Assembly (NCBI GenBank): GCA_965205215.1
Contig: OZ242041.1
Coordinates: 896,001-960,000, forward strand
Source of the DNA: Nitrosopumilus sp.
GTDB taxonomy: Archaea > Thermoproteota > Nitrososphaeria > Nitrososphaerales > Nitrosopumilaceae
DNA: 64,000 nt
Reading direction: 5' to 3'
The notes under the pieces are model-generated. The model was not told the DNA's origin and made no database searches. It worked only from the letters and a program-made list of their open reading frames with translations. Positions 13,774 to 59,815 of the stretch are shown one piece after another. The translations under genes were made by a program, and so were the position numbers. How positions within the stretch are numbered: the stretch's first letter is position 1; each line of letters begins with the position of its first letter.

Positions 13774-14217
13774 ATGGTTTCGATCCGGGATGCCGCCCAC
13801 GGCGACGTGCCATTCGTACTCGACCTGCTATACGAGCTTGGACGGCCCAGGCCTGCCGACAAGCAGGAGGAGGACACGTTCGAGAGAGTCATATCCGGAT
13901 ACATCGCGGATGCCGACAAGGGGCTGCTCGTGGCCGAGTCCGACCATGCGGTCGTGGGGCTGGCGTCCATCATGTTTCTTGTCAGGTGCAACCATGCAGG
14001 GCCGGAGATGTACATTCCAGAATTGGTTGTCCGTGCTGACTGCCGCGGGAGGGGTATTGGCAGGGCCCTGGCCGAGGAGTGCATGAGGATTGCCGCCACG
14101 CGAGGATGCCACCGCATCAGACTGGAGTCGGGGAACCGGCGCAAGGACTCGCATGATTTCTACCGGCGCCTGGGATTCGGCCAGCAGGCACTGTCGTTTG
14201 AGTTTCTGGTTTCCTAA
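13774..14217 (+). CDS. GNAT N-acetyltransferase
   Basis: LVVRADCRGRGIGRAL acetyl-CoA motif A; FYRRLGF. Confidence 0.9.
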   Translation: MVSIRDAAHGDVPFVLDLLYELGRPRPADKQEEDTFERVISGYIADADKGLLVAESDHAVVGLASIMFLVRCNHAGPEMYIPELVVRADCRGRGIGRALAEECMRIAATRGCHRIRLESGNRRKDSHDFYRRLGFGQQALSFEFLVS

Positions 14218-14696
14218 CTGACCATAGCTCTGCCGACGTGACTCCGGCCGGCCGTTCCATTCCTGCGCGCTCGAATCCTATGCGTGACTCCGACTGCCAA
14301 AAGACATGGAGCAAAGCCCCGGTAAAACGGGTGTCTTTCACGCGCCAGAGGGGAAATGCAGTCTAACGCGGCATGCCCGCTTGTTCTTGACGCTGCACGG
14401 GTGCATCGGATACACGTCGTAGAAGAGCCCGGTGTGTGCAAGGCAGATTGACTGCGCCGTCTGAGCCGCTAGTGCACCGGGTGCAGGACACCTGACGGCC
14501 TCAACGGAGCGGGCGCGGCTTACTGGCGGTGCGATTCGCGAGTCGGATCCTTCCAAGGAAGTGGCGCCGCAGCCAGATCGGGCAGATGGCAACGACAATC
14601 CGGCAAACGCCATCTGACGGCACGCAAGACCGGCGTCACGCCAGTGGGGCACCTACCTCCTCCTACCTGAGCTAATCTTAAAATTCTGGCAGTTGG

Positions 14697-43237: not shown

Positions 43238-45214
43238 TCATCCGGACGGCCGTCCTTCCAGCTTGCGCAGTATCTCGAGTTCCTGCTCCAGCTCCGGATC
43301 CCCGATTGATTCCATCTCCCTCTCAAAGTGGTCCCCGAACTGCCCCATTATCGCCTGATAGCCGCCGGATACGCTCAGCGGAATGGACTGCCTCTCCCAC
43401 TGTCCCAGCGGCGTGCTGCCTACATGGTGTGGCATGCGGATCCCCTCGGACAGGAACGGCGACACCCCGTCCCCATAGAACGGGTAGCGTTCAAACTCGA
43501 ATCCCTGGTAGTACGCGTAGGACGCCCTCTCATCAAAGGCCCACGTCTTGGCGAGTTCTGCATACTTTGCAAGGAGGATCCCCTTTCGGATTCCTGTGTT
43601 CTCATAAAACGTGGTGCCGCGATCCTCGAGCTCGAACGTGACGGAGTCTCCGCCCATCATACCTGACCTGTCCCTGTAACTCGCGTCCAGGATGATGGAT
43701 GCGTCGCCAGGCGCCCTTTCCAGCTTGAGCAGCACTATCCCGCCCTTTGTCTGCCCGTCCTCGACCTTGGAGGGGAACAGCGTGTTTATCCTCATTATCT
43801 CCCCCGTGGCCAGATCCGCCTCCGGGGATCCGTATACCTGCTCTATCGAGTACCCGTCTGACTCTAACCTCAGGACAAGGTCGAAGACTAGCGGCGTAAC
43901 CATGAACTCAAACTCGTCAGTCATCCTGTCCAGGAACGACGAGGACGAATGTATGGAGTAGTTGGCCCCCCTGACCTTGGTGATGTGCTCCACCAGCTCC
44001 GTGTTAAAGTCCACGCCGATCCCTATCACGGTGGCGTGGATGCCCTTTTGCGCATTCTTCTCAATCATGCCAAACAGCCCAAACTCGCTGACCAGATCGG
44101 TGTTAGGCATCGCGTCTGTGAGGAATATTATCCTGCTTTCATACTCGTCGGGATCCGCGTCCCGCACCGCCTCAAAGAGCGACGTGCCCGCCCTGATTCC
44201 CGCTTCCATGTTTGTCCCCCCGTCTGCATGGATGGCCAGTATGTTCTTCTTCAGCCGATCGCGGTCTGCCGCCCCCATGCTTTCCAGCGGCTTTGCGACG
44301 TGGGCTGTGTTCTCAAAGAGCACTATGCCGAGCCTGTCATCGTCCCCCAGATAGTCAACCATCCCGGCAATGGATTCTGTGGCGACGTTGATCTTTGCCT
44401 TGGCAAAGTCGTCCTCTGGGGCGTCCGGACGCTCAAACCGGTTCCCAAGCTGGTCGTAATAGTACCTGTCAAATGCGCTCTGCATCGATCCCGAGACGTC
44501 CAGGACCACGACCAGGTTGAGCTTCTTCCTCTCAAAGTCGGATTCCTTTATTCCAGAGTTCAGCCCTACTGACAGGTAGTATTCGTCCTTTTCTGAGAGC
44601 GGATCCTGCGAGACTGCATAGCTGTACGACGGGCAGAACAGTTTTTCGCACTGCTGTTCTGCGCCGGTATCAAAGTAATAGTCGCTGAACAGGCCCTCGT
44701 ACGTGATGTCGGTATGGAGCGGGAGAAAGTCGTTTTCTATGTTCTTCCTAAAGTTCTCAACGTCCTGCGCGCCCCCCGCCGTGAGGCCTATGTTTGACGG
44801 TTGACTCTGGAGGCCCTGGGGTTGCGGGGAGCTCTGCATGGCGCTTTTTTCCTCTGGCATCCTCTCTGGCTGTTCGCTCCAAGTGTCCGAATAGAATCTG
44901 GCCTGGTTGTAAAGGCTGGACGGTTTGCCTGATGGCTTTTCAACTAACGGGTTGTCCTGCATTGTCTGTACCATAACCCATCCACGCTGCTGCAGCGCTT
45001 CGGCGGACTTTTCATAGAGGCACGCCGGCACGCCATTCGGCGACTCCATTAGTATCCTTGAGTCCCTGCACTGTATCTCATGTATCGGTATCCCGGAGTT
45101 ATACTGGACCAGGGGTGGGGGAGTGTCTGCCAGCGCGGGAACGGCAGCCGTGCCGGCAACCGAGGCAAACGACAGCAGCAACAGCAACAATACGGAAAGG
45201 GTCACTCTGCCCAT
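43238..45214 (-). CDS. exported VWA-domain protein (YfbK-like)
   Basis: Signal peptide; MIDAS DVSGSM, GGTN, FLTD. Confidence 0.88.
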   Translation of the reverse strand: MGRVTLSVLLLLLLSFASVAGTAAVPALADTPPPLVQYNSGIPIHEIQCRDSRILMESPNGVPACLYEKSAEALQQRGWVMVQTMQDNPLVEKPSGKPSSLYNQARFYSDTWSEQPERMPEEKSAMQSSPQPQGLQSQPSNIGLTAGGAQDVENFRKNIENDFLPLHTDITYEGLFSDYYFDTGAEQQCEKLFCPSYSYAVSQDPLSEKDEYYLSVGLNSGIKESDFERKKLNLVVVLDVSGSMQSAFDRYYYDQLGNRFERPDAPEDDFAKAKINVATESIAGMVDYLGDDDRLGIVLFENTAHVAKPLESMGAADRDRLKKNILAIHADGGTNMEAGIRAGTSLFEAVRDADPDEYESRIIFLTDAMPNTDLVSEFGLFGMIEKNAQKGIHATVIGIGVDFNTELVEHITKVRGANYSIHSSSSFLDRMTDEFEFMVTPLVFDLVLRLESDGYSIEQVYGSPEADLATGEIMRINTLFPSKVEDGQTKGGIVLLKLERAPGDASIILDASYRDRSGMMGGDSVTFELEDRGTTFYENTGIRKGILLAKYAELAKTWAFDERASYAYYQGFEFERYPFYGDGVSPFLSEGIRMPHHVGSTPLGQWERQSIPLSVSGGYQAIMGQFGDHFEREMESIGDPELEQELEILRKLEGRPSG

Positions 45215-45453: not shown

Positions 45454-45527
45454 GGGCCCGTAACTCAGCTTGGTAGAGTAACCGGCTCATAACCGGTGAG
45501 CCATGGGATCGAAGCCCTTCGGGCCCA
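45454..45527 (+). tRNA. tRNA with CAU anticodon, probably tRNA-Ile2
   Basis: GGGCCCG/CGGGCCC stem, ACCGG-CTCATAA-CCGGT arm; GGGCCC acceptor is Ile-like; one T-stem mismatch; marks the left edge of the right island. Confidence 0.85.
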
Positions 45528-45750
45528 TTCTATCCTTTTGCGAGTCAATTTTGACTCGATCTTTGCCGCCTGATTCCATGCCCGTCAACATGCAGGTTCA
45601 GGGGGAAGTGGGATTTAACCCTGCTGGTTGGGATCGAGCTACTTTCGAACTTGAACTCTGCAAGGTACGGATTCTGGTGTTGCAGGCATGATGATTCCAT
45701 GTGCTGGTTGAACCCTTAAGGCATTTATCGAAGATTCCGAGACGTGTGAC

Positions 45751-46563
45751 GTGGTACGGTTCTGCCATCACTATTACGGCAACAACTCGGGATTCTGCCT
45801 GAAGTGCGGGGCCGTGCGCCGTAGCACTTCTGGAGGAGGACCGCGGCGCAGCAGGCGCTGGAAGCCGCGGAGGCGGCGTCATCGCAGGGGCGGCCGCACG
45901 CGCGGCATCATGTCCGGAATCGGCAGGTTCATCATATTTAGTATAATTGCAACCGCCATCCTTTGGGGTATCATATACGGGATTGAATGGTTCTCCGATA
46001 GATACAAGCCGCACATGTCCGGAACGGTGGATAATGCTTCCGGGACAGCCGGTGGGGACGGCATACTGGAATGGCCCGGAGCGCTTGACCCCGTGTTCTA
46101 TACCGCAGAGGAGGAATCAAGGGCCAACCTTGAGTATATCAACGGCCTACGCGCGGAACATGACAGGACTCAGATCGCGTTCGATGCAAGGGCATACGAT
46201 CTTGCGCTTGCCCGCGTCCACGACACTCTGGAATACGACTACCGCGACCACGTTAACCCGCACACCGGAACCTGCCCGTACACCATGAAAGGCGAATACG
46301 GCTTTGCCACGCACGAGCAGGTGGCAGAAAACCTGGCGTGGGTAGAAGGGGTGGGTCACATGGGACCCAACGAGGCGACAGACATCTGGATGGATAGCAC
46401 GGGCCACAGGTTTAACCTGCTGTACCCATCACACACCGGCGGGGCAACCGCGTGCGACGGTGGCGTATGCATATTTCTCGGTGTGAACACCGACCTGTTC
46501 GGGGCCAAGTGCGCCACCGCCGCAGAAGGAGAAGCGTACTGGAACGGGCGCTCCGGTGGATAA
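45751..46563 (+). CDS. membrane-anchored CAP (SCP/PR-1) domain protein
   Basis: N-terminal Cys/His and Arg-rich segment, TM helix, INGLRAEH, AENLA, WMDSTGHRFNLL. Confidence 0.8.
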   Translation: MVRFCHHYYGNNSGFCLKCGAVRRSTSGGGPRRSRRWKPRRRRHRRGGRTRGIMSGIGRFIIFSIIATAILWGIIYGIEWFSDRYKPHMSGTVDNASGTAGGDGILEWPGALDPVFYTAEEESRANLEYINGLRAEHDRTQIAFDARAYDLALARVHDTLEYDYRDHVNPHTGTCPYTMKGEYGFATHEQVAENLAWVEGVGHMGPNEATDIWMDSTGHRFNLLYPSHTGGATACDGGVCIFLGVNTDLFGAKCATAAEGEAYWNGRSGG

Positions 46564-46796
46564 TATGACAGTCTGGCGCAGCACAATGGCCAACGTGTCA
46601 GGCGCGCATCAGGATTTCTAGTTGAAGCCTTATCCGCGACAGTCAAGACTCGCAGTCGGCCACAGTTGAACCCCCGATCTACCTGCATATGTGATGGTGG
46701 CCCAGACGGCAGATTGTTCTGGGTAGGCTCGCGGTCTGATGCAACAATAACGGAGATGGTTTGTGTAGGGATGGCAGTTACTAGAGTTGTACGTGA

Positions 46797-46858
46797 TACT
46801 GGTGCGGATTCATGATATGGATGGTTTGTCGCGTGTATGTCACGAATTCGCACCGGTA
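46797..46858. mobile_element. 62-bp palindromic element (MITE-like, TA ends)
   Basis: TACTGGTGCGGATTCATGATAT...ATGTCACGAATTCGCACCGGTA; near-identical to 49400-49461. Confidence 0.7.
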
Positions 46859-46860
46859 TC

Positions 46861-47319
46861 ATGTCAGGTATGGTTTTTATGACATTGCCTACGTTGTACG
46901 GTACGGCTCCCAACAAAAATAACACCGACTGCACGGATGCGACCGACACATTAAATGAACTAACTAGAAATATTTCCAGTGAACCCAACCATGCACAACG
47001 TGTGGAAACCCCTCATCCACAGAATACGGCGAGACAACGCCGACAACCGACACGCGACGGACGCCCCGATGCAGGCACGCGCGCAACCCCCAAAAAGGAG
47101 CCCGCACCCGGACCAACAACCCCGTATGACATACTTGGTCTGTCCGGTACCGCCACGTGCGCCGAAATCAAGACAAGGTACAGGCAGATGGTAAGGGACC
47201 ACGACTCGTCAAGGGGGCGAATAACCAAGACCGTGCAGGAGAGGGAGATCGACGATGCCGCCATGGCCGCGATCAACAGGGCATACTCAGCATTGAAGAA
47301 AAAGCACGGGTGCAAATAA
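46861..47319 (+). CDS. C-terminal J-domain protein (HPD replaced by HDS)
   Basis: PYDILGL...AEIKTRYRQMVRDHDS...MAAINRAYSAL; TAATG coupling to Hsp70; 5' end uncertain. Confidence 0.7.
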   Translation: MSGMVFMTLPTLYGTAPNKNNTDCTDATDTLNELTRNISSEPNHAQRVETPHPQNTARQRRQPTRDGRPDAGTRATPKKEPAPGPTTPYDILGLSGTATCAEIKTRYRQMVRDHDSSRGRITKTVQEREIDDAAMAAINRAYSALKKKHGCK

Positions 47320-49352
47320 TGGCCGTACTTGGGATAGACCTTGGCACCAGCAGCTCGGCCGCGGCCGTACTCTTGGACGGCAGGGTACAGATAATACCCA
47401 ATCCGGACGCGGGCACGACAGGCAAGCCCTTCCCGTCCGTAGTGTCGTTTTTCAGGGACGGCAGCTGCCTGATCGGGGCGCCCGCAGAGGAACAAAGGCC
47501 GTACAACCCGCACGGCACCATCTCAAACATAAAACGGGACATGGGAACAACCCGGCAAATTGAAGTCTTTGGAAAAAGCTTCATCCCGCAGTTCATATCC
47601 GCGCTGCTCCTGATGAAGATAAGGCTTGACACGGAGTCGTTCCTGAACGAGAAAGTAACGCAGGCGGTAATCACGATTCCCGCAAACTTTAACGACGCCC
47701 AGCGGCAGGCAACGCTGGACGCCGGCCGCATAGCCGGGCTTGACGTGGTGCGGCTTTTGCAGGAACCGGTGGCCGCCGCAATGTCATACGGACTCCACCA
47801 TCTGGAGGAACCGTCCAGGATTTTGGTGTTTGACATGGGGGCCGGCACGCTTGACGTCTCCATCCTAGAGGTCGATTCCGGGTTTTTCGAGGTCATCTCC
47901 ACGTCGGGTTCGCAGCATGTGGGCGGCATCGGCATGGACGACGCAGTCTCAGAATGGCTTGCCGAGGAACACGAAAGGCAGCACGGCCAAAAGCCCGCCG
48001 CCGCCCAGTCATTGCGGCGCCTGTCCGAACTCGCAACCATGCTCAAGCATGAATTGTCAGAGCGGGACGAGGCCTCGTTTGACGAGGACATACCGATGGC
48101 GTCCCACCTTGCCGGAAAAATCACAAGGGGTGTTTTTGAAAAATTGATTGGCGGCCTGCTGGATGAATGCAGGGATGTAATCATGCAGGCCCTGGACAAT
48201 GCCGGACTGCACGCGGCGGACATCGACAGGGTGGTTCTTGTCGGCGGCCCAAGCAAGGTCCCCTCCGTACGGCGCCTGCTCAGAACCGCCGTAAGGGAGC
48301 CGGAGGACGGGATAGACCCGTATTTTGCCGTCGTTTCCGGCGCCGCCATACAGGGCGGCGTGCTGGCCAACGACAAGAACCTGCCCGAATTATACAACGG
48401 GCTGACACTGCTGGAGGTCACGCCGCTTGACCTGGCAGAGGAGGCCCGGAAAGACGGGAAGATCGTACCGGTGGTCATGATCCCGAAGAACACGCCATAC
48501 CCGACGTTTCACACCGAGACGTTCTACGTGAACAAGCCGCTTCAAACCGAGGTTGAAATCAGGGTCTGGCAGGGGGATTTTGAGGCGAACCCCGGGTTTG
48601 CGGGGAACGTAAGCCTCGGCGCGTTCGTCCTAAGCGGGTTACGCGCCGGATGCCAGAACGAGGTCGAGGTCAGATACGAGTTGAATGACAACGGCATACT
48701 GACCGTGCGCGCCGCGGAAATTGGGGGCGGCGTCAAGGGCGAGCTCACCATTGACAGGATATGGAGCCGCATGGGCGCCGTAGCGGAACTTGGATACGAG
48801 CAGCCGGACGAGCATGCCGGGAATGAGGAGGAAATGAAGTCATATGAAAGCAAGTACCGGGATGTAATGTCCCCGTATGAGATGCCAATAGGCAATCAGC
48901 AGGAGGAAGCCGGCGACGCGGGCATGTCATGGATGTGCGGCAGCCTTGCCGACGCAAAGGACATCATCAGGACGCACCACGCGGACCTGCCGGTCGACTT
49001 TTTTGACACCGCCAGGTTTGAGCTGTTTTTGCAGGATGACATGCAGTATGCGTACGCATACATCCACCTTTCCGGGGGTCCCGTATACCAGATAGGCATA
49101 CACAAGATGTTTGCGGAACACACGCGCGAGACCCAGAGAAGCCTCGTAGTAACACTGGTGCACGAACTCCTGCATGCCGTACACCCCGACTGGGGGCACA
49201 ACAGGATAAGGCCCGAAGAGCGCAGGCTTGCGAACCTTGCGCATTACTTCGACGCATATGTGGAGCATGAACGCATGTTTCTCAGCGGGCGCATGTCGTT
49301 TTGCAACAACACACACACCAGTGTGGACGGGAAGCGCATATCGTGCGGTTGA
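47319..49352 (+). CDS. Hsp70-family protein with C-terminal HExxH (zincin-like) domain
   Basis: GIDLGT, TIPANFNDAQRQAT, EPVAAA, DMGAGTLDVS, LVGG, linker LLEVTPL; C-terminal VHELLHAVHPDWGH. Confidence 0.88.
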   Translation: MAVLGIDLGTSSSAAAVLLDGRVQIIPNPDAGTTGKPFPSVVSFFRDGSCLIGAPAEEQRPYNPHGTISNIKRDMGTTRQIEVFGKSFIPQFISALLLMKIRLDTESFLNEKVTQAVITIPANFNDAQRQATLDAGRIAGLDVVRLLQEPVAAAMSYGLHHLEEPSRILVFDMGAGTLDVSILEVDSGFFEVISTSGSQHVGGIGMDDAVSEWLAEEHERQHGQKPAAAQSLRRLSELATMLKHELSERDEASFDEDIPMASHLAGKITRGVFEKLIGGLLDECRDVIMQALDNAGLHAADIDRVVLVGGPSKVPSVRRLLRTAVREPEDGIDPYFAVVSGAAIQGGVLANDKNLPELYNGLTLLEVTPLDLAEEARKDGKIVPVVMIPKNTPYPTFHTETFYVNKPLQTEVEIRVWQGDFEANPGFAGNVSLGAFVLSGLRAGCQNEVEVRYELNDNGILTVRAAEIGGGVKGELTIDRIWSRMGAVAELGYEQPDEHAGNEEEMKSYESKYRDVMSPYEMPIGNQQEEAGDAGMSWMCGSLADAKDIIRTHHADLPVDFFDTARFELFLQDDMQYAYAYIHLSGGPVYQIGIHKMFAEHTRETQRSLVVTLVHELLHAVHPDWGHNRIRPEERRLANLAHYFDAYVEHERMFLSGRMSFCNNTHTSVDGKRISCG

Positions 49353-49399
49353 CATCATTTTATGCCTGATTCTCGGCACTCCTACCATAACCTACAAGG

Positions 49400-49461
49400 T
49401 ACCAGTGCGGATTCGTGACATGGATGGTTTGTAGCGTGTATGTCACGAATTCGCACCGGTA
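49400..49461. mobile_element. 62-bp palindromic element (MITE-like, TA ends)
   Basis: Inverted repeat extends 49393-49468 (27/29 match, 18-nt centre). Confidence 0.7.
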
Positions 49462-49490
49462 CCTTGTACGTAAATGTTAATTATTGACGT

Positions 49491-50675
49491 ATGAATAAGG
49501 TTGACATGCGAATCAGCAGAAGAAAAGAATCATGGTTGATTGGCATACGGCTGCGCGGTAGCCTTCGATCCGATGTACGGAATTACATGAACGACGTTCA
49601 GAGTGATTTTCAGGACGAGAAGAGGCGATATCCACACATTACGTTATTTGGACCATTTTCTACGCGCATGGCAGAACGACATCTAATATACACATTAATG
49701 AGCATTGCCAAAAAATATCCTGAAGCGAGGTTTTCAACAGACGGGTTTTCGTCATTTGATAATAGCGGGTGGTTTTCTGAAGGCCGCGGCATTATAATGA
49801 TCAAAATAGTACCCAATGAAGATCTAAAGCGAATGCGGTATGACATTGCGCAAGAACTACTACCACACTGCTCGCAAGAGGGGGAGTATGATCGAGGCAG
49901 CAAGAACGACTTCAAGTTTCACGCTACGTTAGCGATCGGTAGGACTGGAAAACTCTTCAAAGAGATAAACAAGGAACTCAAATCATATGAATTTAAGCAC
50001 GAAGACATCAAACCGGAACTGATCTTGTATCGCAATCAAGCCCCGGTTTTTACATATCTTACAGGACACGATGTTACGCCCACAAGGCCCAGAAACTTGT
50101 ATGCTGATCCCGAAACGAACCAGAAAGTTATGCCATCCTCCCCCTCTCCCACAGATGAGAGCAGACGTAGGGGAGAGATTTTTGTGGTCAGTGACATGCA
50201 TTTTGACCACAAAAATATCATAAAGTACTGCAAAAGGCCGTTCAGATCCGTCTATGATATGAACCGCGCACTGATCGGCAATTGGAACGACAGGGTAAGG
50301 AAGGGTGACAGGGTGTATTATCTCGGCGACATGACATTCGGAGGAAAAAGAGGATCCATTGACTTTTGGCTCTCTAAACTAAACGGGGAGGTGCGATTCG
50401 TACGCGGCAACCACGACACCGATACCATTACGAGGGCGGAGGTAATAGAGGACAGATTTCCCATAAAGTATGGTGACTACGAATTTCTTTTGATGCACGA
50501 TCCTCACAGGCCACCAGACTGGGACGGGTGGATCATACACGGGGACAAGCACAACAACAGCCCCATTAGATACCCACACATCAACAGAAGAAACAAGACG
50601 GTGAACGTTTGCGTAGAATATACCGATTACACCCCGATGAACCTTGACGAGATCATTGCAAAGATTTCCGAGTGA
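49491..50675 (+). CDS. 2H-phosphoesterase + calcineurin-like metallophosphoesterase fusion
   Basis: PHITL and FHATL (2H); DMHFDH, GD, GNHD, H, HGDKH (MPE). Confidence 0.85.
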   Translation: MNKVDMRISRRKESWLIGIRLRGSLRSDVRNYMNDVQSDFQDEKRRYPHITLFGPFSTRMAERHLIYTLMSIAKKYPEARFSTDGFSSFDNSGWFSEGRGIIMIKIVPNEDLKRMRYDIAQELLPHCSQEGEYDRGSKNDFKFHATLAIGRTGKLFKEINKELKSYEFKHEDIKPELILYRNQAPVFTYLTGHDVTPTRPRNLYADPETNQKVMPSSPSPTDESRRRGEIFVVSDMHFDHKNIIKYCKRPFRSVYDMNRALIGNWNDRVRKGDRVYYLGDMTFGGKRGSIDFWLSKLNGEVRFVRGNHDTDTITRAEVIEDRFPIKYGDYEFLLMHDPHRPPDWDGWIIHGDKHNNSPIRYPHINRRNKTVNVCVEYTDYTPMNLDEIIAKISE

Positions 50676-50680
50676 GTATA

Positions 50681-51164
50681 TAATCACGAGCAAAAGTTCA
50701 TGAGCAAGCATTTGCTCTAAACGGAACCTTTATTGATCATACTATAGTGTGACGCAAAAATCTTTGCGACTGTCAGAACTACACGCGCAACCTTTTTTGA
50801 TCACCGGATGCACCGCTTGGCATGGATGAGAAAGACAGAGACTTGTTTATTCGAGCCTACAAGGCGGAACAAGGCCACCTCGTAAGAAATAGAATCCACA
50901 GTCTGCATGCTCAAGATCAACGGATTGAAGGTATCCGAGGTCACCTCGCTGTGTTATTGCTACTCGCGCACCGTATCCGACTGGGTTCGGCGCTTTGACG
51001 AGGACGGACTTGCAGGCCTGAAAGACAGGCCCCACCCGAGCAGGCCGCCAAAGATAACCCTGAAGAAGATCAGGAGGATTATTGCGGTGGGAGGCGGCAT
51101 CACAACGTCAAGGATGCTTAAGAATACCATACGCGAAAGACACGAGGCGTCCTCGTCATTGTAA
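50681..51164 (+). mobile_element. nested IS630-family fragments
   Basis: IS left end 50681-50742 interrupted by a second end (ctatagtgtgacgcaaaa); HTH remnant TVSDWVRRFDEDGLAGLKDRPHPSRP. Confidence 0.75.
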
Positions 51165-51204
51165 TTATATCAACACATGAGAATCAGAAGATTTAATTTA
51201 AAAG

Positions 51205-52035
51205 CTATCCAAATTTGGCAATTAGCTGATCAGTAATTACTGTTGCATATTTCTTATAAAGTGAGATTGATTGTTTTAGATAAGAATCTGTAATTTTCAA
51301 TCGAGTATCTTTACCAACATAACCAGTTTTTGATTTATAATGTTTATCGGGATAAAGATTATTGTGAATCAATATGTGTCTTCTGTAAAATCGTTCTTTA
51401 AATTTTCTATAATTTTTATCCTCGGTTAAATTAATTTTAAACCGCTTCTCTAGATATTTAAAAATACCATCTATGTCATATTTAATTATGTTTTTGACAG
51501 CTTTGGATCTCATATCATCAATTAAAGAATTCATATTTTCAGCAGCCAGTATATCTGAAAAAGTAACTTTCATATCGTGGGATTTTAAGATTTGTGGTTT
51601 TATGGTGAAAACAACATTTAACAGATCATCCAAAAATTCTTCAAATGCAGCGATTAGGTAAACCACAGACATCTCTCTGCAAAATCGATGAAATCTGTAA
51701 TGCAATAAATCTAATTCTAAATCTGTGGAGACAAGCTTAACAAGTAATTGTGAATCTGTTGTAAATTTCTGTCGTTTTTCCGGTGGGAGTGAGTTCCATC
51801 GTTTATATCTGGTGTATTCTTTTTTGTCACTCGTAGTCATTTGTCCAAAAATGTTTTTATGTGCCGCAGTATTTTTAGGCGTTACTTGTTCTTTAACAAT
51901 ATGCGCAACTTCTTTGTTTATGTAAGTTAAAACATCCAAAGTAATTATGAAATGATCACGTGGGTAAGTTAATTGTTCTTTTTTTGATTGTTTAGTAGTG
52001 GAACTAATTTTAGCTACTAAGTAACGTTTTGTCAT
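51205..52035 (-). CDS. AT-rich putative HEPN-domain protein
   Basis: VYLIAAFEEF helix and R-x4-H motif (RHILIH). Confidence 0.65.
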   Translation of the reverse strand: MTKRYLVAKISSTTKQSKKEQLTYPRDHFIITLDVLTYINKEVAHIVKEQVTPKNTAAHKNIFGQMTTSDKKEYTRYKRWNSLPPEKRQKFTTDSQLLVKLVSTDLELDLLHYRFHRFCREMSVVYLIAAFEEFLDDLLNVVFTIKPQILKSHDMKVTFSDILAAENMNSLIDDMRSKAVKNIIKYDIDGIFKYLEKRFKINLTEDKNYRKFKERFYRRHILIHNNLYPDKHYKSKTGYVGKDTRLKITDSYLKQSISLYKKYATVITDQLIAKFG

Positions 52036-52162
52036 GAACGTATTTTAATTTTGTAGTTATTAAATTTTGTATGAGTTCACGTCGTGCCTAGATTTTGACC
52101 AAAAGGTGATCAAACGTTGACTGTACAGATCCAAATAGTGCGTAGACAAGTATAGCTGAGGG

Positions 52163-53186
52163 TACTGATGCGAATTCGTGACATGGCCACCAATCGGGGG
52201 GGGGGGGGGGGCATGGACTGCCGCACGTACAGAGAGGGTAGGCTTCCAAGGCGTCAAAGGTGCCCGGACTGCGGGCGGTTCATACTGCCTATCGAATACA
52301 TCGTCTGGAAGAGTTAAAGCGGAGGGCGTCCGGGAAGGGGGCATGAAGTGCGCCACGTGCGGGGATAGGACAAACGAGCGTTGCCAGAAGTGCAATGCGG
52401 CGTGTTGCACTGTCTGTAAGAGTGAATATGATTACGAAGTCTGCCCGAACTGCAAGCGAATAGTGATCGCAAATGGGTACGTAGATGGGATTTACGACGA
52501 CGGGAAGGAGTATCCTCTAGAGCTGGCCGCTGTTCATACTGTGTTGATGAATATTCAAGTTCTGCTTGGCGCTATGGTAAAGACGAGTCCGGAGACAATG
52601 AAGGCATTGGAAAGTATGAATCCCGACTACACGAGGTTTGTAGATCAGTTACTGAAGTTCAACACAAAGGCACAGGCAGACCCCCCGGAATAGCCCCCCA
52701 CAGACGCCTTTTTGTCCGCGTGCTTTGAAAACCTACTGCATGCCAAGCCGACGGTCTAGACGGCCTGCACGCCCCCAGAACCGCACGCGGCAGAACAACA
52801 AAACTGCACAGTCCAAGACATCAGAAACGGCCTGACATTATGATCAAACTGTCAGGCTCCGCCATTTTTTCTGAAAACGTTCGTTTTCAGGGGGGTTTAG
52901 CTTTCGTGCCTGCATACGCGATGCAAACACGCAAACACCCCCCCCTTGCACGGTCAAAGATGCCCAAGGATTGCAATGTACACACAATGCAGGCACGAAT
53001 AACGCCATACGTGCGGCCGCAGGCAATGTTTCAATTATCCATACCTAATAGATCATTCGGCATCAGATACTGGTACGAATTTGTGACATGGCCATCTAAT
53101 CGGGGGGGGGGGGGGAGGGAAGGGCGGCGGCGGCGGCGGCGGGGCGCCCCGGTTTCTTATACCTATATCACGAATTCGCATCAGTA
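52163..53186. mobile_element. composite bounded by the same inverted-repeat family, containing a 119-bp copy at 53068-53186
   Basis: TACTGATGCGAATTCGTGA at 52163 is the exact reverse complement of 53168-53186. Confidence 0.6.
52343..52693 (+). CDS. Zn-finger hypothetical protein
   Basis: CATC...CQKC...CTVC...CPNC. Confidence 0.7.
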   Translation: MKCATCGDRTNERCQKCNAACCTVCKSEYDYEVCPNCKRIVIANGYVDGIYDDGKEYPLELAAVHTVLMNIQVLLGAMVKTSPETMKALESMNPDYTRFVDQLLKFNTKAQADPPE

Positions 53187-53230
53187 CCTTGTTCATAAAC
53201 GTTAATTATTGTCGCGCGGATAGACTGACC

Positions 53231-55582
53231 GTGCAAACTATAAGGGAAACACTGTGGTTGGTTGGCATCAGACTGCGCGGCGACCTGCGGCATGATGCGC
53301 GTAGATACATGGAGGATGTTCAACGAGCTCTTTCAGACGGGGAAAGGCGGTTCCCGTACATTTCACTATTCGGGCCGTTCTCAACGCACATGATGGAACG
53401 GCAGATAATAGATGCAATGATTACAGCGATTGAGGCACACCCGGATGCAAGATTCTCAACAGACGGACTGTCGTCACGCGTCCATAACAAGCGGCTGGCA
53501 CGAGACCGCGGTGCCATAACCATCAAAATAGAACCCAACGAATCATTAAAGCAGATGAGATACGATATTGCGCAGGCGCTGCTTCCAAGCACCCGGGCGA
53601 CAAAGCACGACCACAGCAGCAAGGACGATTTTGAGTTTTACGTTACGCTGGCCGTTGGCAACACCGACAAGCGATTCAAGGACATAAGCGGAGATATCGA
53701 GTTCCTAGAGCTGAAACATGAAGACATCAAGCCGGAGTTGGTTTTATATCGCGGCAAAAAACCGGTCTTCACATATTTGGCAGGGCACGGTGCCACGCCC
53801 GCAAGGCCCAGAGATTTGTATGCCGACCCAGAAACATTCCAACGCAATCCACACCCAAACACAAATCGAGGCCGGAATCACAGGAAGGGCCGTAGGGATG
53901 CCACGGGCCCACAAGCGCGACGGCCTCGACAACCCTCGCCGCGTACTGAAATCCACAACAGGGATACCGGCCCAAGGGGCCTGAAAGGCGTGGCAGGCAT
54001 GAGGGATCTAAAAAACCTCCTAATATCCGACGTGATAAACCCACTCAGGCACCCCGAGCAATTTAAAAAATTCAAGGTTACTATGCCCAACGGCATACTT
54101 CTACACGGTCCACCGGGCTGCGGCAAGACGTTTATCGTCAGAAAGCTGGCCGAGGAGCTAGACTATAATTTTTTTGAAGTGGCGCACTCGGATCTTGCAA
54201 CGCCCTACATACACGGCTCAGTCGGCAACATCGGAAGAGTGTTCTCAGCGGCCCTGGAAAACGCCCCCGCAATCATATTTTTTGACGAGATAAGCGGACT
54301 GATACCAGATAGGTCGAAGGCTTCCAACACCGGCGACATCTACAAGGAGGAAGAGGTCAACGAGTTCCTCATGCAGCTTAACAACGCCGCCGAGAGGAGG
54401 ATACTGGTGGTCGGCGCGACAAACTACGTAGACAGGATGGATCCAGCCGCTTTGAGGCCCGGCAGGTTTGACAAGAAGATATACGTCCCCCCTCCGGACT
54501 TTGAGGCCCGCAGGTCGCTGTTTGAGATAGGGCTAACGGACCGCCCATGCGACAAGAGCGTCGACTCTGATCAGCTGGCGGAACTGACCGAGGGGTTTTC
54601 GTGCGCCGACATCATCAAGGACGCGATTGAATCTTCCGCACGGTTCGCAGTCAATCGGGGCCTAGACGTGATTGGCCAAGACATCATACGCAACGAGATA
54701 GCTCGCATATCGAAAAGAATAAGCGCGAATCGCCACCACGTACAACCCGCGCTACGATCTCGGCTACGCGCGGAAAGTGGCAGTGACGATTCTGGTCCGA
54801 GAGGCTTGGAAGGCGTCGCAGGCATGAAGGAGCTAAAAAACCTCCTAATATCCGACGTGATAAATCCGCTCAAATATCCCGAGAAATTTGAGAAATTCAA
54901 GGTTACGGTGCCCAACGGCATACTTCTACACGGTCCACCGGGCTGCGGCAAGACGTTTATCGTCAGAAAGCTGGCCGAGGAGCTAGACTATAATTTTTTT
55001 GAAGTGGCGCACTCGGATCTTGCAACGCCCTACATACACGGCTCAGTCGGCAACATCGGGCGCGCGTTCTCAGCGGCCCAGGAGGACGCACCTGCAATAC
55101 TCTTCTTTGATGAGATCAGCGGCCTGATTCCAAACAGAAAAAATTCACTAGGCCACAGCGGCACCCACAAGGAGGAAGAGGTCAACGAGTTCCTCATGCA
55201 GCTTAACAACGCCGCCGAGAGGAGGATACTGGTGGTCGGCGCGACAAACTACGTAGACAGGATGGATCCAGCCGCTTTGAGGCCCGGCAGGTTTGACAAG
55301 AAGATATACGTCCCCCCTCCGGACTTTGAGGCCCGCAGGTCGCTGTTTGAGATAGGGCTAACGGACCGCCCATGCGACCAGAATGTCGACTCTGATCAGC
55401 TGGCGGAACTGACCGAGGGGTTTTCGTGCGCCGACATCATCAAGGACGCGATTGAATCTTCCGCACGGTTCGCAGTCAATCGGGATCTGGACGCGATTGA
55501 TCAGAACATCATACGCAACGAGATAGCGCGGATATCAAGGAGAAAAGCCGCACAATCAGCGGATGAATTGGGCAATACATAA
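53231..55582 (+). CDS. inactivated 2H domain fused to tandem AAA+ ATPase (CDC48-like architecture)
   Basis: PYISL and FYVTL replace the HxT motifs; two copies of GPPGCGKT / FFDE / ATN...DPAALRPGRFD with an 825-bp period; start estimated. Confidence 0.88.
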   Translation: MQTIRETLWLVGIRLRGDLRHDARRYMEDVQRALSDGERRFPYISLFGPFSTHMMERQIIDAMITAIEAHPDARFSTDGLSSRVHNKRLARDRGAITIKIEPNESLKQMRYDIAQALLPSTRATKHDHSSKDDFEFYVTLAVGNTDKRFKDISGDIEFLELKHEDIKPELVLYRGKKPVFTYLAGHGATPARPRDLYADPETFQRNPHPNTNRGRNHRKGRRDATGPQARRPRQPSPRTEIHNRDTGPRGLKGVAGMRDLKNLLISDVINPLRHPEQFKKFKVTMPNGILLHGPPGCGKTFIVRKLAEELDYNFFEVAHSDLATPYIHGSVGNIGRVFSAALENAPAIIFFDEISGLIPDRSKASNTGDIYKEEEVNEFLMQLNNAAERRILVVGATNYVDRMDPAALRPGRFDKKIYVPPPDFEARRSLFEIGLTDRPCDKSVDSDQLAELTEGFSCADIIKDAIESSARFAVNRGLDVIGQDIIRNEIARISKRISANRHHVQPALRSRLRAESGSDDSGPRGLEGVAGMKELKNLLISDVINPLKYPEKFEKFKVTVPNGILLHGPPGCGKTFIVRKLAEELDYNFFEVAHSDLATPYIHGSVGNIGRAFSAAQEDAPAILFFDEISGLIPNRKNSLGHSGTHKEEEVNEFLMQLNNAAERRILVVGATNYVDRMDPAALRPGRFDKKIYVPPPDFEARRSLFEIGLTDRPCDQNVDSDQLAELTEGFSCADIIKDAIESSARFAVNRDLDAIDQNIIRNEIARISRRKAAQSADELGNT

Positions 55583-55611
55583 CAGCGTGCGCCGCGGGAT
55601 GAGTCGTTGAG

Positions 55612-56871
55612 TTGGCACCAACATCCAGAACCGAAGTCAAGCGCAGAGCCGGAAGTAGCCGGCGGCGACTGCCATCTCGTGTCAAAAAATACATGATAGA
55701 GATCAGGGTCGGAGGGCAACAAAATGAGGTACTCAGGCATCTTGTCAAGGTCATAGAGAAAAACTTTGGCGCCAAAAGCAAGTTCAGGCACGTCCCCCAC
55801 GTCACCATAATAGGGACACTGAGTACATCAAACCAGAGAGATCTCATAAACACCGTGCGGAACGTGGCAAAAGATTATGATCTGGTGAGCTTTCGCCTTG
55901 TTGGTTTTGGCGAATTTTCGGGGCGCGCCATATACGCGCACGTCTGCCCGTCAGATGAATTGAGGGAGATGCGGCAGAAACTTGTCAAGAGTCTTGGCAG
56001 GTTCTGCGAGCTCAAAACATACGATATGAAGGAAGATTTCAAACCCCACGCCACCTTGTGCCTCGACACAGATCTACCAGAGAAAACAGAGGTCGGCATC
56101 AAGAGAAAGTTTGGCAAAATACTAGAATTTTTGGAGAGCTGGAAGCTGTTGGATCATAGACAGCACGCGTTACGGGTAAGCGTAATCGGCGAAAACCGGA
56201 AGATAGTATGCGAATATGATTTGATGCTCCGGAGAATGATCAGCAGGGATGAGGCGCTCAACAGGACGCTATTCAAAAAAACAATGTCGGCTTTTGAGAA
56301 GAGGATGAAAAGATCTGGCACAAATGCAGGAAAGCGTCTGAATTTCACAGACGAAAGCGAACACCTTGGAAGAGTTTTCGTACTTAGTGACCTGCATTTC
56401 GATCATACGAGCATCATAAGGCGCTGCAGGAGGCCATTCTCGTCCACCCAGCAGATGAACCGCATACTGGTCAACAACTGGAACGACAGGGTGAGGAAGG
56501 GCGACAGGGTGTATTACCTCGGCGACATGACACATGGAAGAGAAAGAAGATCCATCGACTTTTGGCTTTCAAAGCTGAACGGCGAGGTGCGCTTTATACG
56601 AGGAAGCCACGACACTGACGCCATTACAAGGGCGGAAGTGATAAAGGACAGATTTCCCATCAGATATGGCGGCTTCGAATTTCTTTTGATGCATGATCCT
56701 TACAGGCCGGTGTACTGGGACGGGTGGATCATACATGGAGACAAGTACAATAGCAACCCTGTTACATACCCACACATCAACAGAAGAAATAAGACGATCA
56801 ACGTTTGTTCCGAGTATACTGGATATGCCCCGATGAGTCTTGATGAGATCATCGCAAAGATTCCCAAATGA
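55612..56871 (+). CDS. 2H-phosphoesterase + metallophosphoesterase fusion (MPE partly degenerate)
   Basis: PHVTI, PHATL; DLHFDH, GD, GSHD, HGDKY; true start may be ATG 55693. Confidence 0.85.
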   Translation: MAPTSRTEVKRRAGSSRRRLPSRVKKYMIEIRVGGQQNEVLRHLVKVIEKNFGAKSKFRHVPHVTIIGTLSTSNQRDLINTVRNVAKDYDLVSFRLVGFGEFSGRAIYAHVCPSDELREMRQKLVKSLGRFCELKTYDMKEDFKPHATLCLDTDLPEKTEVGIKRKFGKILEFLESWKLLDHRQHALRVSVIGENRKIVCEYDLMLRRMISRDEALNRTLFKKTMSAFEKRMKRSGTNAGKRLNFTDESEHLGRVFVLSDLHFDHTSIIRRCRRPFSSTQQMNRILVNNWNDRVRKGDRVYYLGDMTHGRERRSIDFWLSKLNGEVRFIRGSHDTDAITRAEVIKDRFPIRYGGFEFLLMHDPYRPVYWDGWIIHGDKYNSNPVTYPHINRRNKTINVCSEYTGYAPMSLDEIIAKIPK

Positions 56872-57187
56872 GGAATGCGGTAACTGGTCAGGCCATACCT
56901 ATTTCTCCAGTCGAAGAGATGATCTTCATGCCTCGATTTCGCAATCGCCTGATCACGTGCATAAATTCAAAACTATAAACAAGATTCTCAAGTCACGTTA
57001 ACTAAAGTGCGCCTACGCTGAACCGGGGTTGATTCTGCATTACAATTATGCGCCTGTTTCCACGTATTTGGTGGGACAGAGTCACAACTCTGCAACCTAG
57101 GAATCAGTGTGGAGCCAACGGAGAGGATTTGACAAGCATGAGAACAGGTTGAAATACAGGTTTTCAGGATCTTGAGATGAGAGATAC

Positions 57188-58525
57188 ATGGCTAACCGGC
57201 GGCAATACAAGCCATATCGATACAGGCATGGCAGAAACCGCGCAAGAAGAGGCCGCAAAGTGGCGGCCATCGTGACTGCAGTGGCCGTTTCTCTTTTACT
57301 AGTTACCATGTTTGCATATGATGGCTGGCCACTCAGACTTGTCAATGAGACGCATGAGGATGTGGGAGATGAGACAGATCCGGTTGGAGACGGTGCGGCC
57401 GAGCCCTCCAGCCTGCAGGAAACCGCCCCTGCCAACACTGATGACGAGCAACAGACGGTGAATGGCGCGGCCGAGCCCTCCAGCCTGCAGGAAACCGCCC
57501 CTGCCAACACTGATGACGAGCAACAGACGGTGAATGGCGCGGCCGAGCTGAGAATGCACATGCTGCGTCTCATCAACGCCGAACGAGCCGTCGCAGGGCT
57601 CGATCCGGTCGAGCTTGGAACAAACACAGCAGCGCAGTACCATGCAGACTCCATGCTGGACAGCTGTACTTCCGGACACTGGGGGGTGGACGGACTCAAG
57701 CCTTACATGAGATACTCGCTTGCAGGAGGACACCAGTATAATGCGGAGAATGTCTACGGCCTAAGCTACTGCATAAAACCGTGGGAGAACTATGTCACTG
57801 TACACCCTAGGGCGGAGGTATCGGAGTCCATGAGATCACTCATGTCAAGCCCCGGACACCGCGACAACATACTTGATCCTCACCACGTGTCGGTAAATGT
57901 CGGTCTGGCGTGGGACGACTACAACATGATGGTGGTGCAGCATTTTGAGTATGATTATGCGTCGTTTTCCAAAAAGCCGTCCATAGACGGCGATGTCCTG
58001 TCCTTTTCTCTTACTACGAAAAACGGCGCCACGATTTCAGACGATTCTACAATACAGATACAGTATGACCCGCCTCCGTACGAACTTACGCGGGGACAGA
58101 TTGCCAGCACCTACTGCTATGATTACGGCCTTTCAGCAGCTACGATACTGCCCCCTCTGCCTCCGGGCTCGTACTACACTGACGACTCTTATCAGGAACA
58201 TTCTTCCTCAAAATGTCCGGATCCATACCGCATCCCTCCCACCGCTCCGGCGCCTGAATCCGTTTGGGGTGCGCTTGAGGCCCACAGACAGGCCGTGGAC
58301 AGTAGCGAGGGGAGCGACAACGCGCCTGCGCGGATGGTTCCGTTCCTTGTTGCCGACAGATGGGACTCGTCCCCAAATCATCTGAACGTGGTTGCCGACA
58401 TATCAGAGATTATCTCAGAGCGCGGGGCCGGAGTATACACCATAACGGTATGGGGTTTTGTACGCGGGGATGCCCCGATAGGCGAGTACTCGGTATTTTA
58501 TGACATCCGCCCGCCGGACGGCTAG
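57188..58525 (+). CDS. membrane-anchored CAP domain protein
   Basis: Arg-rich N-terminus, TM helix, LINAER, AENV, MSSPGHRDNILDP; 72-bp duplication 57395-57548. Confidence 0.85.
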   Translation: MANRRQYKPYRYRHGRNRARRGRKVAAIVTAVAVSLLLVTMFAYDGWPLRLVNETHEDVGDETDPVGDGAAEPSSLQETAPANTDDEQQTVNGAAEPSSLQETAPANTDDEQQTVNGAAELRMHMLRLINAERAVAGLDPVELGTNTAAQYHADSMLDSCTSGHWGVDGLKPYMRYSLAGGHQYNAENVYGLSYCIKPWENYVTVHPRAEVSESMRSLMSSPGHRDNILDPHHVSVNVGLAWDDYNMMVVQHFEYDYASFSKKPSIDGDVLSFSLTTKNGATISDDSTIQIQYDPPPYELTRGQIASTYCYDYGLSAATILPPLPPGSYYTDDSYQEHSSSKCPDPYRIPPTAPAPESVWGALEAHRQAVDSSEGSDNAPARMVPFLVADRWDSSPNHLNVVADISEIISERGAGVYTITVWGFVRGDAPIGEYSVFYDIRPPDG

Positions 58526-58542
58526 ATTAGATATTATGATAA

Positions 58543-58806
58543 TTGAAGTTAGGGCTGGCTCGTCACCTATCTCTAGAGTTCGTCCCTTTTCCTGCTACTA
58601 GGATCCTGTTTGCAATGTCGACGTCTGACTCGGAGGGGATTGACATGAAGACCATCAAGAAGTCTGGTATTGTCCAAGGCACGTTGGCAAAATCGTTGGT
58701 CAGACTTGAGCGCAAGGGGCTAGTGCATCGTTGTGGATATGGAAAGCACAGACTGTCGCTGTCTCTGTTGGGGGAATACCTGAAGAGAAGGATCCCACAG
58801 ATGTGA
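58543..58806 (+). CDS. winged-HTH (MarR-like) small protein or fragment
   Basis: SGIVQGTLAKSLVRLERKGLV...LSLSLLGE. Confidence 0.45.
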   Translation: MKLGLARHLSLEFVPFPATRILFAMSTSDSEGIDMKTIKKSGIVQGTLAKSLVRLERKGLVHRCGYGKHRLSLSLLGEYLKRRIPQM

Positions 58807-58877
58807 TGCCACATTTGCGCTACGACATGCAGAGAGAGGAGGGAAGGCGTAAATCCGCTATACCTCAGCCTAGGATC

Positions 58878-58978
58878 TTGCCATCTTTGCCATCTTTGCC
58901 ATCTTTGCCATCTTTGCCATAGTTTGCCATCTTTGCCATCTTTGCCATAGTTTGCCATCTTTGCCATAGTTTGCCATC
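58878..58978 (+). repeat. 9/10-bp tandem repeat TTTGCCATC / TTTGCCATAG x~11
   Basis: Read directly. Confidence 0.95.
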
Positions 58979-59196
58979 ATCACATCGTCTACCAATCTGA
59001 GCCCATCATGGATCTAGACCTCGACTGTACAGTATACGACAAGGATCTCTACAGGAAGATGAAGTCACAAATGAGATGTCAGTCCAGTCATAGCCAAATC
59101 ATTCCAGTTCGTCCATCTGCCAGCCCACTACCCATCGGCCTTAGTATTGTTGACTTAGGTACCATGGACGTGAACCATCTCTCCTTGAGATATGCT

Positions 59197-59815
59197 TAAC
59201 CGCCTTTGTCACCGAACTTACTGACATTGGTGCCCGTGCCGCGCCCGGTGCTGGTGCCCTTCCCATATACCTGATGCCTGTCAAAGTCGACAAAGTCGAC
59301 AATCTTGTCGGCTTTGTCGACACTCGTGTCTGGAACGCCCAAAGAATCTACAAGTCTAATAACGCCTCGTGCGGAGGTGCGGCGGAACCGGGCGCCTGAA
59401 CGCGGTGACAAGTCGGATTATTCGTTTGCGAATGTTGTTCCAAAACTTCTTGTCCGTTTCAGGAATCGGGGTATGCCGCGGAACGACTGAACGGTGAACC
59501 TGCCAGCGCGCCGCCGGCCGGGCGTGCTTTTCGCGGGACGGTCGGGCCGCCGGGCCCGACTGTATGTGGGAGGGGGCCGCCGCTAGGCGGCCCCCGGTCG
59601 TTTCGGGGTTGCCGCGCGCGGGTTCGTCTTGTCTGTCCAAGGGTAATGCGAGTCCGGCCGCCCGCCGGGCCGTGCGTGGCGCGGCTGTCCGGACGGCGCC
59701 GTATGCATATTGTGCACGTGTCTGGTGCATATTATGCATCCGGAATATGCATATTATGCACGCCGGAATGCCTCGAAATGCATATTATGCATCCCCCGTA
59801 TGCATATTATGCAGT
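59197..59815 (+). other. repeat/hairpin module, copy C (no AbrB gene)
   Basis: Core closely matches copy A; hairpins 59541-59560 and 59572-59595; five TGCATATTRTGCA sites 59704-59813. Confidence 0.8.

Follow-up and report, generated by a model that had tools for sequence, protein, structure and literature searches.

The locus described here raises the question of whether an archaeal island that unites a chaperone/protease set with nucleotide-processing enzymes represents one multi-component system or an assembly of separately acquired parts. It lies in the window, the whole 64,000-nucleotide stretch analyzed, which corresponds to positions 896001-960000 of an archaeal genome assembled as one contig of 2.10 Mb (GC 0.603). 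This genome is called G000; other G numbers denote family genomes, L numbers loci or contigs, and X numbers sequencing runs. A first-pass annotation had put the island forward as a single candidate conflict or stress system bracketed by two CAP proteins. Current evidence instead supports, with a probability of about 0.5, a horizontally acquired mosaic of Nitrosopumilaceae-specific recurrent accessory modules, with products that may share a coupled mechanism, rather than one fixed operon. The island, the tRNA gene at its edge and the genes that define the modules are as follows.

45454..45527, + strand: tRNA with anticodon CAT (labelled 'Met' by ARAGORN, Ile2 in the first-pass annotation), left edge of the island
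45621..59574, no strand: low-GC island of ~14 kb, with limits set by a joint in a related organism that may be an empty site and by the GC profile
45751..46563, + strand: CAP1 (PF00188, E 2.1e-6)
46837..47319, + strand: J-like co-chaperone (DnaJ, E 1.3e-5; 25.7 bits, under the 27.8 cut-off)
47319..49352, + strand (open reading frame from 47157): Hsp70-zincin (PF00012, E 8.9e-115, profile positions 100-499 of 599)
49491..50675, + strand: 2H-MPE_a, a 2H domain fused to a metallophosphoesterase (MPE) domain (2_5_RNA_ligase2, E 1e-11; Metallophos_2 and Metallophos just under their cut-offs)
53189..55582, + strand: dead 2H domain, basic linker and two AAA modules (2_5_RNA_ligase2, E 1.6e-7; PF00004 in two stretches, E 1.1e-64)
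55612..56871, + strand: 2H-MPE_b (2H, E 7e-15; no Pfam match for the MPE)
57188..58525, + strand: CAP2 (PF00188, E 2.7e-5)

Open reading frames, Pfam matches, motifs and folds place all the domains named in the first-pass annotation in the order that it gave. The almost wholly co-directional layout also holds, as every island gene lies on the + strand with the sole exception of 51205-52035 (-). GC content is 0.40-0.57 in the island bins (~45.6-59.6 kb) and 0.60-0.63 in both flanks, and proteins encoded in the window include RFC, Nuo subunits and biotin carboxylases. One contig of run X3 (n=1) joins 45620 to 59575 with 46 letters on its shorter side, a joint that may be the empty site of the whole island.

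The first recurrent module couples a J-domain adaptor to an Hsp70 with a peptidase-like tail. The two genes are linked stop to start, the Hsp70 start at 47319 overlapping the stop codon of the J-like gene (TAATG). Motifs of the Hsp70 nucleotide-binding domain (NBD), the linker and the beta part of the substrate-binding domain are kept (DLGTS, FDMGAGTLDVS, EPVAAA, LLEVTPLDL). The Pfam match is followed by LVHELLHAVHPDWGH, and the protein ends in a conserved HELLHAVHPDWGH tail. The C-terminal helical lid (the alpha part of the substrate-binding domain) is absent, and the remaining ~150 residues are predicted to fold as a zincin. The AlphaFold2 model of this tail (predicted local distance difference test, pLDDT, 85.5) found its best Foldseek matches in the minigluzincins proabylysin (4jiu; E 3.1e-3, template-modelling scores 0.53/0.72) and selecase (4qhf), with SPRTN (6mdw), IrrE/PprI and CapP lower down. 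On this model, the tail is a minigluzincin-like peptidase fold that replaces the lid.

The tail is also the most conserved part of the protein (HELLHAxHPDWGH...E...LAN). Within its HELLH-bearing zincin, H88, H92 and E107 are invariant, and E89 is kept in all fused forms. Pfam gave no match to the tail alone, and a tail-only search recovered 92 protein clusters, all unannotated or named DnaK; the length is 640-730 aa in 82 clusters. Matches to the tail occur in 44 of 401 family genomes (including the unpublished G371), nine as full fusions. Stand-alone zincins of ~253 aa are found in 29 of the 63 genomes of genus g27 (L034-L047 and others, again including G371); they carry HQLLH, or HHLLH in L040, with the metal ligands kept and the catalytic Glu lost. 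A separate 530-aa cluster, protein P0092, combines TPR and CDC48 N domains with a zincin tail.

A J-type gene lies directly upstream at all seven genome loci with flanking sequence and at all nine full-length metagenome loci (five by tblastn, four by reading translations). J domains are expected to carry an HPD tripeptide between helices II and III. At this position the J-like protein of the window has HDS, as aligned by eye with partners from other loci; the genome relatives have YNA, HPS, YKL or NNL, and HPD is kept in three of five marine partners read. Among the latter, HPD is present in the L105 partner and in the upstream one of the two J-like partners in L102. The N-termini of these adaptors vary between Cys/His repeats, a set of three J domains and an FN3-like region seen by eye (partners of L103 and L105 and the upstream L102 partner). 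The J gene of the window probably starts downstream of 46837, because that position falls inside a palindromic repeat described below. The pairing of a J-domain adaptor with an Hsp70-zincin is thus a recurrent module.

The second module pairs a membrane-anchored CAP protein with a cytoplasmic 2H-MPE fusion. Both CAP proteins of the window exceed the PF00188 gathering score of 21.1 (29.0 and 25.4 bits) and have a single hydrophobic segment after a basic N-terminus, which bears out their description as bracketing membrane proteins. CAP1 consists of an N-terminal zinc-ribbon-like CxH..CxxC, an Arg-rich stretch, one transmembrane segment (residues 52-70) and the CAP domain; the CxH...CxxC N-terminus, Arg-rich stretch and one transmembrane segment are common to many CAP partners. 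Under the positive-inside rule for membrane topology, its CAP domain is predicted to be extracytoplasmic. CAP2 has a basic N-terminus, a transmembrane segment, a 72-nt tandem duplication, the CAP domain and a C-terminal extension. The duplication (window 57392-57535, 99% identical) encodes a repeated acidic 24-aa segment between the transmembrane segment and the CAP domain. A homologue of CAP1 (81% identical) directly adjoins 2H-MPE in G079, and a homologue of CAP2 (58% identical) adjoins the AAA gene in G184.

2H enzymes open 2',3'-cyclic phosphates or 2'-5' linkages. In 2H-MPE_a, both 2H motifs (HIT, HAT) and the MPE motifs (SDMHFDH, LGD, GNHD, HDP, HGDKH) are kept, and the MPE is of the aq_1665 type (1xm7, E 1.1e-5); copies are 90% identical in G184 and 76% in G079. 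The second protein, 2H-MPE_b, shares 75% identity with 2H-MPE_a over the MPE half of the latter and keeps its 2H motifs (HVT, HAT). In its MPE, two positions with at least 90% conservation among 115 relatives depart from the family pattern, reading GSHD for GNHD and HGDKY for HGDKH; across these 115 family members, the 2H and MPE motifs are conserved. A protein search returned 199 clusters at E <= 0.001, named '2'-5' RNA ligase family' or 'calcineurin-like phosphoesterase' in their sources.

Outside G000, a CAP gene lies next to 2H-MPE or one gene away at 13 of 21 loci (L069-72, 74, 76, 77, 80, 81, 83, 84, 87, 88), often on the same strand and often 0-5 nt apart. In four of five genomes checked, this neighbor is the only Pfam-detectable CAP gene of the genome; G000 has three CAP genes, two of them inside the island, and the window holds two CAP plus 2H-MPE pairs. 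The nucleotide-processing arm proposed earlier is therefore real as a CAP and 2H-MPE pair, which is a recurrent module. HEPN genes flank 2H-MPE in L082 (Swt1-type) and L086 (HEPN plus MNT). At L077 (G134), a TPR and CDC48_2 protein (6612-7610) is encoded directly upstream of the pair; together with P0092, it hints at a link between CDC48-type parts and the modules.

The distribution of this pair bears on a physiological role, in which 2H-MPE and a surface CAP protein would serve RNA repair or nucleotide/phosphate salvage, with extra proteostasis, and could support life inside a host. The 2H-MPE family reaches 14 of the 27 genera sampled, the CAP partner is predicted to be extracytoplasmic, and parts of the window stretch are present in sponge metagenome runs; no RNA run is listed among the runs that contain such parts. 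Against such a role, matches occur in only 43 of the 401 family genomes, and the loci are variable and rich in transposases and defense-type genes. Moreover, 2H-MPE shows no signal peptide by reading, and the paralogues duplicate and inactivate rapidly. A physiological function of this kind is very unlikely.

The third module is the AAA protein. Both HxT/S histidines of its 2H domain are replaced by Tyr (FPYISLFGPF, FEFYVTLAVG). The two AAA modules are of the classical type, each with GPPGCGKT (Walker A) and FFDE (Walker B), and stem from a recent 825-nt tandem duplication (91-98% identical); their closest solved relatives are the D2 domains of CDC48/VAT/p97. No match to CDC48_N (PF02359/PF02933) was found in the protein, and the 2H-like domain occupies the N-terminus. 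Six protein clusters (65-90% identical) contain the fusion, some with one AAA module and some with two. Tyr stands at both sites in all six clusters, and the inactive state of the 2H domain is therefore maintained. As judged from these motifs, a CDC48-D2-like AAA protein with a putatively dead 2H in the place of the N domain constitutes a conserved fusion family.

Comparison with relatives indicates how the three modules came together. In G079 (L069), blastn places homologues of CAP1 (82-84% nucleotide identity) and 2H-MPE_a (81%) ~175 bp apart; the 2.7-kb J-Hsp70-zincin cassette of the window is therefore an insertion. In G184, homologues of 2H-MPE_a (90%) and of the dead-2H-AAA-AAA gene (88%) lie ~480 bp apart, so that 50.68-53.19 kb represents a second insertion. 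Contigs of runs X3, X5 and X6, from three studies, join 50675-81 to 53189-93 and thus confirm related strains without this segment. A contig of run X6 (4.8 kb, ~96% identical) retains CAP1, J, Hsp70-zincin and 2H-MPE_a. The older order, as reconstructed from these alignments, is CAP - 2H-MPE - dead-2H-AAA - CAP, into which J-Hsp70-zincin and the HEPN/zinc-ribbon genes were inserted. The first-pass view of one conserved unit does not survive this comparison, as insertions entered an older arrangement and the modules are separated by about 0.4 Mb in G184 and 1.3 Mb in G105.

The second inserted segment and its two genes are as follows.

50676..53188, no strand: inserted segment, GC ~0.40-0.52, absent from related strains and G184
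51205..52035, - strand: HEPN protein of RiboL-PSP type (RRHILIH), 276 aa, assigned from its relatives' motifs, PF18735 and VIA-align
52178..52693, + strand: zinc-ribbon open reading frame (DZR, E 0.027), likely start M56 at 52343

Taken alone, the HEPN protein of the window reaches a Pfam E of only 0.09. Its family comprises 892 representatives; in 61 relatives, E214, R218, R219 and H224 are invariant (E-x3-RR-x4-H), and 14 of these 61 match PF18735. The AlphaFold2 model (pLDDT 93.6) gave a VIA-align list led by HEPN chains at Z 7-8.9, values that can arise by chance for helical bundles and are not decisive alone; Foldseek against PDB returned nothing useful for this model. For the zinc-ribbon open reading frame, tblastn found no relatives in any locus examined. 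The segment is a later, strain-specific insertion, and HEPN, listed by the first-pass annotation among the parts of the system, turns out to be an add-on.

A palindromic repeat of ~75 nt, with arms of ~26 nt (GGTACYRGTGCGRATTYGTGACAT), marks several of these borders. It occurs at ~11 sites in G000, those in the window being listed here.

46790..46864, no strand: copy 1, left border of the J-Hsp70-zincin cassette, 87% to copy 2, hairpin z-score -5.0
49393..49467, no strand: copy 2, right border of the cassette, DNA hairpin of -29.6 kcal/mol, z-score -8.4
52163..52211, no strand: lone left arm plus G16, from the repeat search
53068..53190, no strand: copy with its arms split by G14 and (GGC)n

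Outside the window, copies lie near 86.6 kb, 652.7 kb, 969.5-975.3 kb and 1982.4 kb of the G000 contig (G000:C1), and other copies in this genome are near integrase-like and HerA/TraG-like genes. The repeat was found in no related locus, including the 88-90% identical locus of G184. Being absent from related loci and present elsewhere in G000, it is therefore a repeat of the genome rather than a part of the system, and a function as shared operator of the system was rejected on the same grounds. The palindrome could represent cassette borders, attC-like if read in the manner of an integron, a miniature inverted-repeat transposable element or an operator.

These observations also bring in independent accretion, by which a tRNA-flanked recombination hot spot would have gathered two or three unrelated units (a proteostasis cassette, a CAP/2H-MPE pair and a HEPN toxin) with no functional coupling. 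Two demonstrable insertions, the distances between modules in G184 and G105, and a genome-specific palindrome between modules and at ~7 other genome sites are what such a process would leave behind, and no 2H, MPE or CAP gene lies near most Hsp70-zincin loci. Several physical and phyletic links between the arms oppose it, however. The conserved dead-2H-AAA fusion joins both arms in one protein, and in G007 the Hsp70-zincin gene is directly followed by a 207-aa 2H gene; the first-pass suggestion that the two arms are tied is upheld by both. The AAA subfamily (E <= 1e-55) is confined to four of the 401 genomes (G000, G184, G105 and G170), all among the nine with Hsp70-zincin (hypergeometric P 5e-6 without G000, the genomes being related). 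G105 has a CAP1-like gene at a distance of 3 kb from its AAA operon. Accretion without coupling is a possible alternative, if a doubtful one.

The chaperone/protease arm as such recurs, as had been proposed: J with Hsp70-zincin at every locus with flanking sequence, AAA with zincin in four of four genomes, and both kinds of gene side by side in the metagenome contig L117. There, a stand-alone HELLH zincin of 142 aa comes 8 nt after the AAA gene. One operon is common to G170 and G105; in it, a weak GrpE-like gene and the genes of an Hsp70-like protein (839 aa) and a 584-aa protein precede the AAA gene (L049 of G170, 4176-10151; L090 of G105, 9500-15360; the L117 stretch spans 1-3436). In the 839-aa protein Pfam sees the NBD only, and the 584-aa protein has a faint J-like N-terminus. 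This operon, joined by a zincin in L117, itself looks like a private chaperone-protease set. A complex prediction for the L117 AAA protein and the adjacent zincin gave a score of 0.00, which speaks neither for nor against binding. The AAA gene lies close to the Hsp70-zincin gene in G000 (4 kb) and G170 (7 kb) and far from it in G184 (412 kb) and G105 (1.29 Mb). Elsewhere, the modules neighbor integrases, transposases, restriction-modification S subunits, Mrr, TIR, HEPN, MORC-like and ABC/OLD-like genes. In G007, the J-Hsp70-zincin-2H trio is followed (L009, 12205-17163) by HNH-like, RNase HII-like, WD40-Roc GTPase and TIR genes, a stretch that resembles a defense island.

A number of observations weigh against a mosaic with coupled functions. 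The analysis of homologous neighborhoods that the first-pass annotation had called for shows the modules recurring separately, and the full nine-gene set was not found beyond this genome in the loci examined. A 2H gene adjoins Hsp70-zincin at only two of eight genome loci with downstream flank and at no metagenome locus with downstream sequence, and most Hsp70-zincin loci have no 2H, MPE or CAP gene nearby. In G184 and G105, AAA or 2H-MPE genes are 0.41 Mb and 1.29 Mb away from Hsp70-zincin, respectively. The co-occurrence of AAA and Hsp70-zincin rests on three other genomes, two from one genus, and eight of the 21 2H-MPE loci have no CAP neighbor (L073, 75, 78, 79, 82, 85, 86, 89). Catalytic and co-chaperone activities are not assured either, because the J-like protein of the window lacks HPD and the stand-alone zincins of g27 carry HQxxH. 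The island contains no enzyme that makes a signal nucleotide, and the HEPN RNase, a possible maker of cyclic-phosphate (>P) ends, belongs to a strain-specific insertion. Lastly, gene calls came from a crude picker of open reading frames.

For the preferred reading of a mosaic with a coupled mechanism, the domain logic points to proteolysis that is driven by ATP and guided by an adaptor, with the dead 2H domain as its putative link to the turnover of 2',3'-cyclic-phosphate or 2'-5' nucleotides. The underlying biochemistry would be RNA-end healing or signal-nucleotide turnover. In such a scheme, the J adaptor would pass a client to the substrate-binding domain of Hsp70, and the tethered zincin would cut it. 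The AAA unfoldase may partner the same zincin, as Cdc48 does with Wss1. The dead 2H domain would bind, without cleaving, a ligand that live 2H enzymes open, either a 2',3'-cyclic-phosphate end or nucleotide or a 2'-5' linkage; once bound, it could recruit or gate the unfoldase. 2H-MPE would open and then dephosphorylate the ligand, thereby resetting the system, and the CAP partner might provide an envelope-side input. The setting is likely conflict with viruses or mobile elements, or RNA-damage stress. In its strongest form, this scheme amounts to an undescribed archaeal pathway in which a dead 2H domain reads RNA-damage or immune nucleotides and gates a CDC48-like unfoldase with an Hsp70-tethered minigluzincin, while diversifying J adaptors aim the minigluzincin, and a membrane CAP sensor and its live 2H-MPE set and reset the signal. 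That complete pathway is rather improbable.

Among characterized systems, the closest parallel to the protease side lies in Wss1/SPRTN. These minigluzincin proteases work with Cdc48/p97, according to one study (PMC4559962). The likeness consists of the minimal HExxH...E zincin fold, with SPRTN (6mdw) among the Foldseek matches, and of the association with a CDC48-type AAA protein, as in L117, where AAA precedes zincin. In contrast, the zincin of the window is fused to Hsp70 in the lid position, with a J partner of its own. No module for SUMO, ubiquitin or DNA binding was seen, and the AAA protein carries a dead 2H instead of a CDC48 N domain.

Bacterial GTPase-centric conflict systems offer a second parallel. 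In the accessible portion of the study by Kaur et al. (2020, PMC7159879), Hsp70/GrpE/DnaJ components occur in GAP1-N2 systems and FNIII-DnaJ fusions are described for bacterial conflict systems. The shared trait is a private Hsp70 that is encoded in variable islands together with a J-domain adaptor, to which the weak GrpE-like gene and NBD-only-type Hsp70 of G170 and G105 and some marine J partners that look FN3-fused by eye can be added. However, Pfam detects no GTPase domain in the island, and only in G007 does a WD40-Roc gene lie 2.6 kb downstream. The lineage is archaeal and its Hsp70 has a peptidase domain, whereas 2H, MPE or CAP partners are not described for the GTPase-centric systems in the same portion.

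Other likenesses are narrower. IetAS, an AAA ATPase with an S8 protease, shares the ATPase-protease pairing, and the AAA modules match IetA models (E 2.2e-58), although any classical AAA would do so and the island has no IetS/S8 protease. RNA-repair phosphoesterases of the LigT/CPDase and Pnkp kinds, as generally known, resemble 2H-MPE in the conserved two HxT/S and MPE motifs, and by analogy a reaction order of opening >P and then removing the phosphate is plausible. Unlike in RNA repair, a kinase, ligase or Hen1 is absent, a membrane CAP protein takes the part of conserved partner, and the MPE is of the uncharacterized aq_1665 type. RiboL-PSP HEPN proteins (PF18735) share the R-x4-H motif and all-helical fold with the protein of the window, and its relatives match PF18735, but the window protein itself scores only E 0.09; at 276 aa it stands alone, and its gene was inserted in the opposite orientation.

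PADLOC recognized no system among the island proteins, as the first-pass annotation had expected, and returned generic IetA/TRIP13 matches for AAA and a weak PDC-M61B match for Hsp70. No named defense system matches the island, and none of the nearest analogues has an Hsp70-peptidase fusion, a dead-2H-AAA or a CAP partner. A search of the full text of main articles found no description of the Hsp70-zincin fusion, the dead-2H-AAA fusion or the CAP/2H-MPE pair.

The position of the island invites a further explanation, namely that its genes are cargo serving an integrated mobile element or provirus. Viral 2H phosphodiesterases destroy host immune nucleotides. By this account, 2H and MPE would do the same, and Hsp70, J and AAA proteins would aid assembly of the element. 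The adjacent tRNA, low GC and possible empty site fit such an origin, as do tyrosine integrases beside J-Hsp70-zincin in G170 and G321 (with a HerA/TraG-like ATPase too in G170) and the palindrome copies of G000 near integrase-like and HerA-like genes. On the other side, the open reading frames and Pfam results reveal no integrase, capsid or replication gene in the island, and a repeat search found no direct repeat of the tRNA 3' end at its far edge. Scans of viral contigs, of limited sensitivity, yielded no Hsp70-zincin, with only partial HExxH-region matches for the tail, and, from single-protein patterns, no 2H-MPE. Many CAP/2H-MPE loci also sit among ordinary genes. Service to an element of this kind is quite unlikely.

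Ammonia-oxidizing archaea are globally abundant, and their accessory and defense biology is poorly known. Against this background, the island brings together three uncharacterized families with testable domain logic: Hsp70-zincin with J (at least 92 clusters), CAP/2H-MPE (199) and dead-2H-AAA. If the coupling is real, nucleotide or RNA-end sensing would be linked to targeted proteolysis, and prokaryotic CAP proteins would gain a functional context. If not, the locus presents a clean case of cassette-built islands, with empty and filled sites both in hand. If true, the complete undescribed pathway would include a machine built on an Hsp70-protease fusion and give prokaryotic CAP proteins an assigned role, each for the first time.

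Further features lie at the margins of the island and beyond it. Its gene-poor right edge (window 58868-58987 and 59704-59813) holds ~10 tandem copies of TTTGCCATC and ~5 copies of the palindrome TGCATATTATGCA, the latter ~22 nt apart. Directly left of the tRNA, 43238-45214 (-) encodes a 658-aa protein with WING-49 and vWA domains. A second low-GC stretch at 1-8 kb (GC 0.47-0.51) is possibly another defense-type island; it contains a 698-aa ABC/OLD-type ATPase (2123-4219) with weak matches to PtuA, retron Eco8 effector and MADS3 models.

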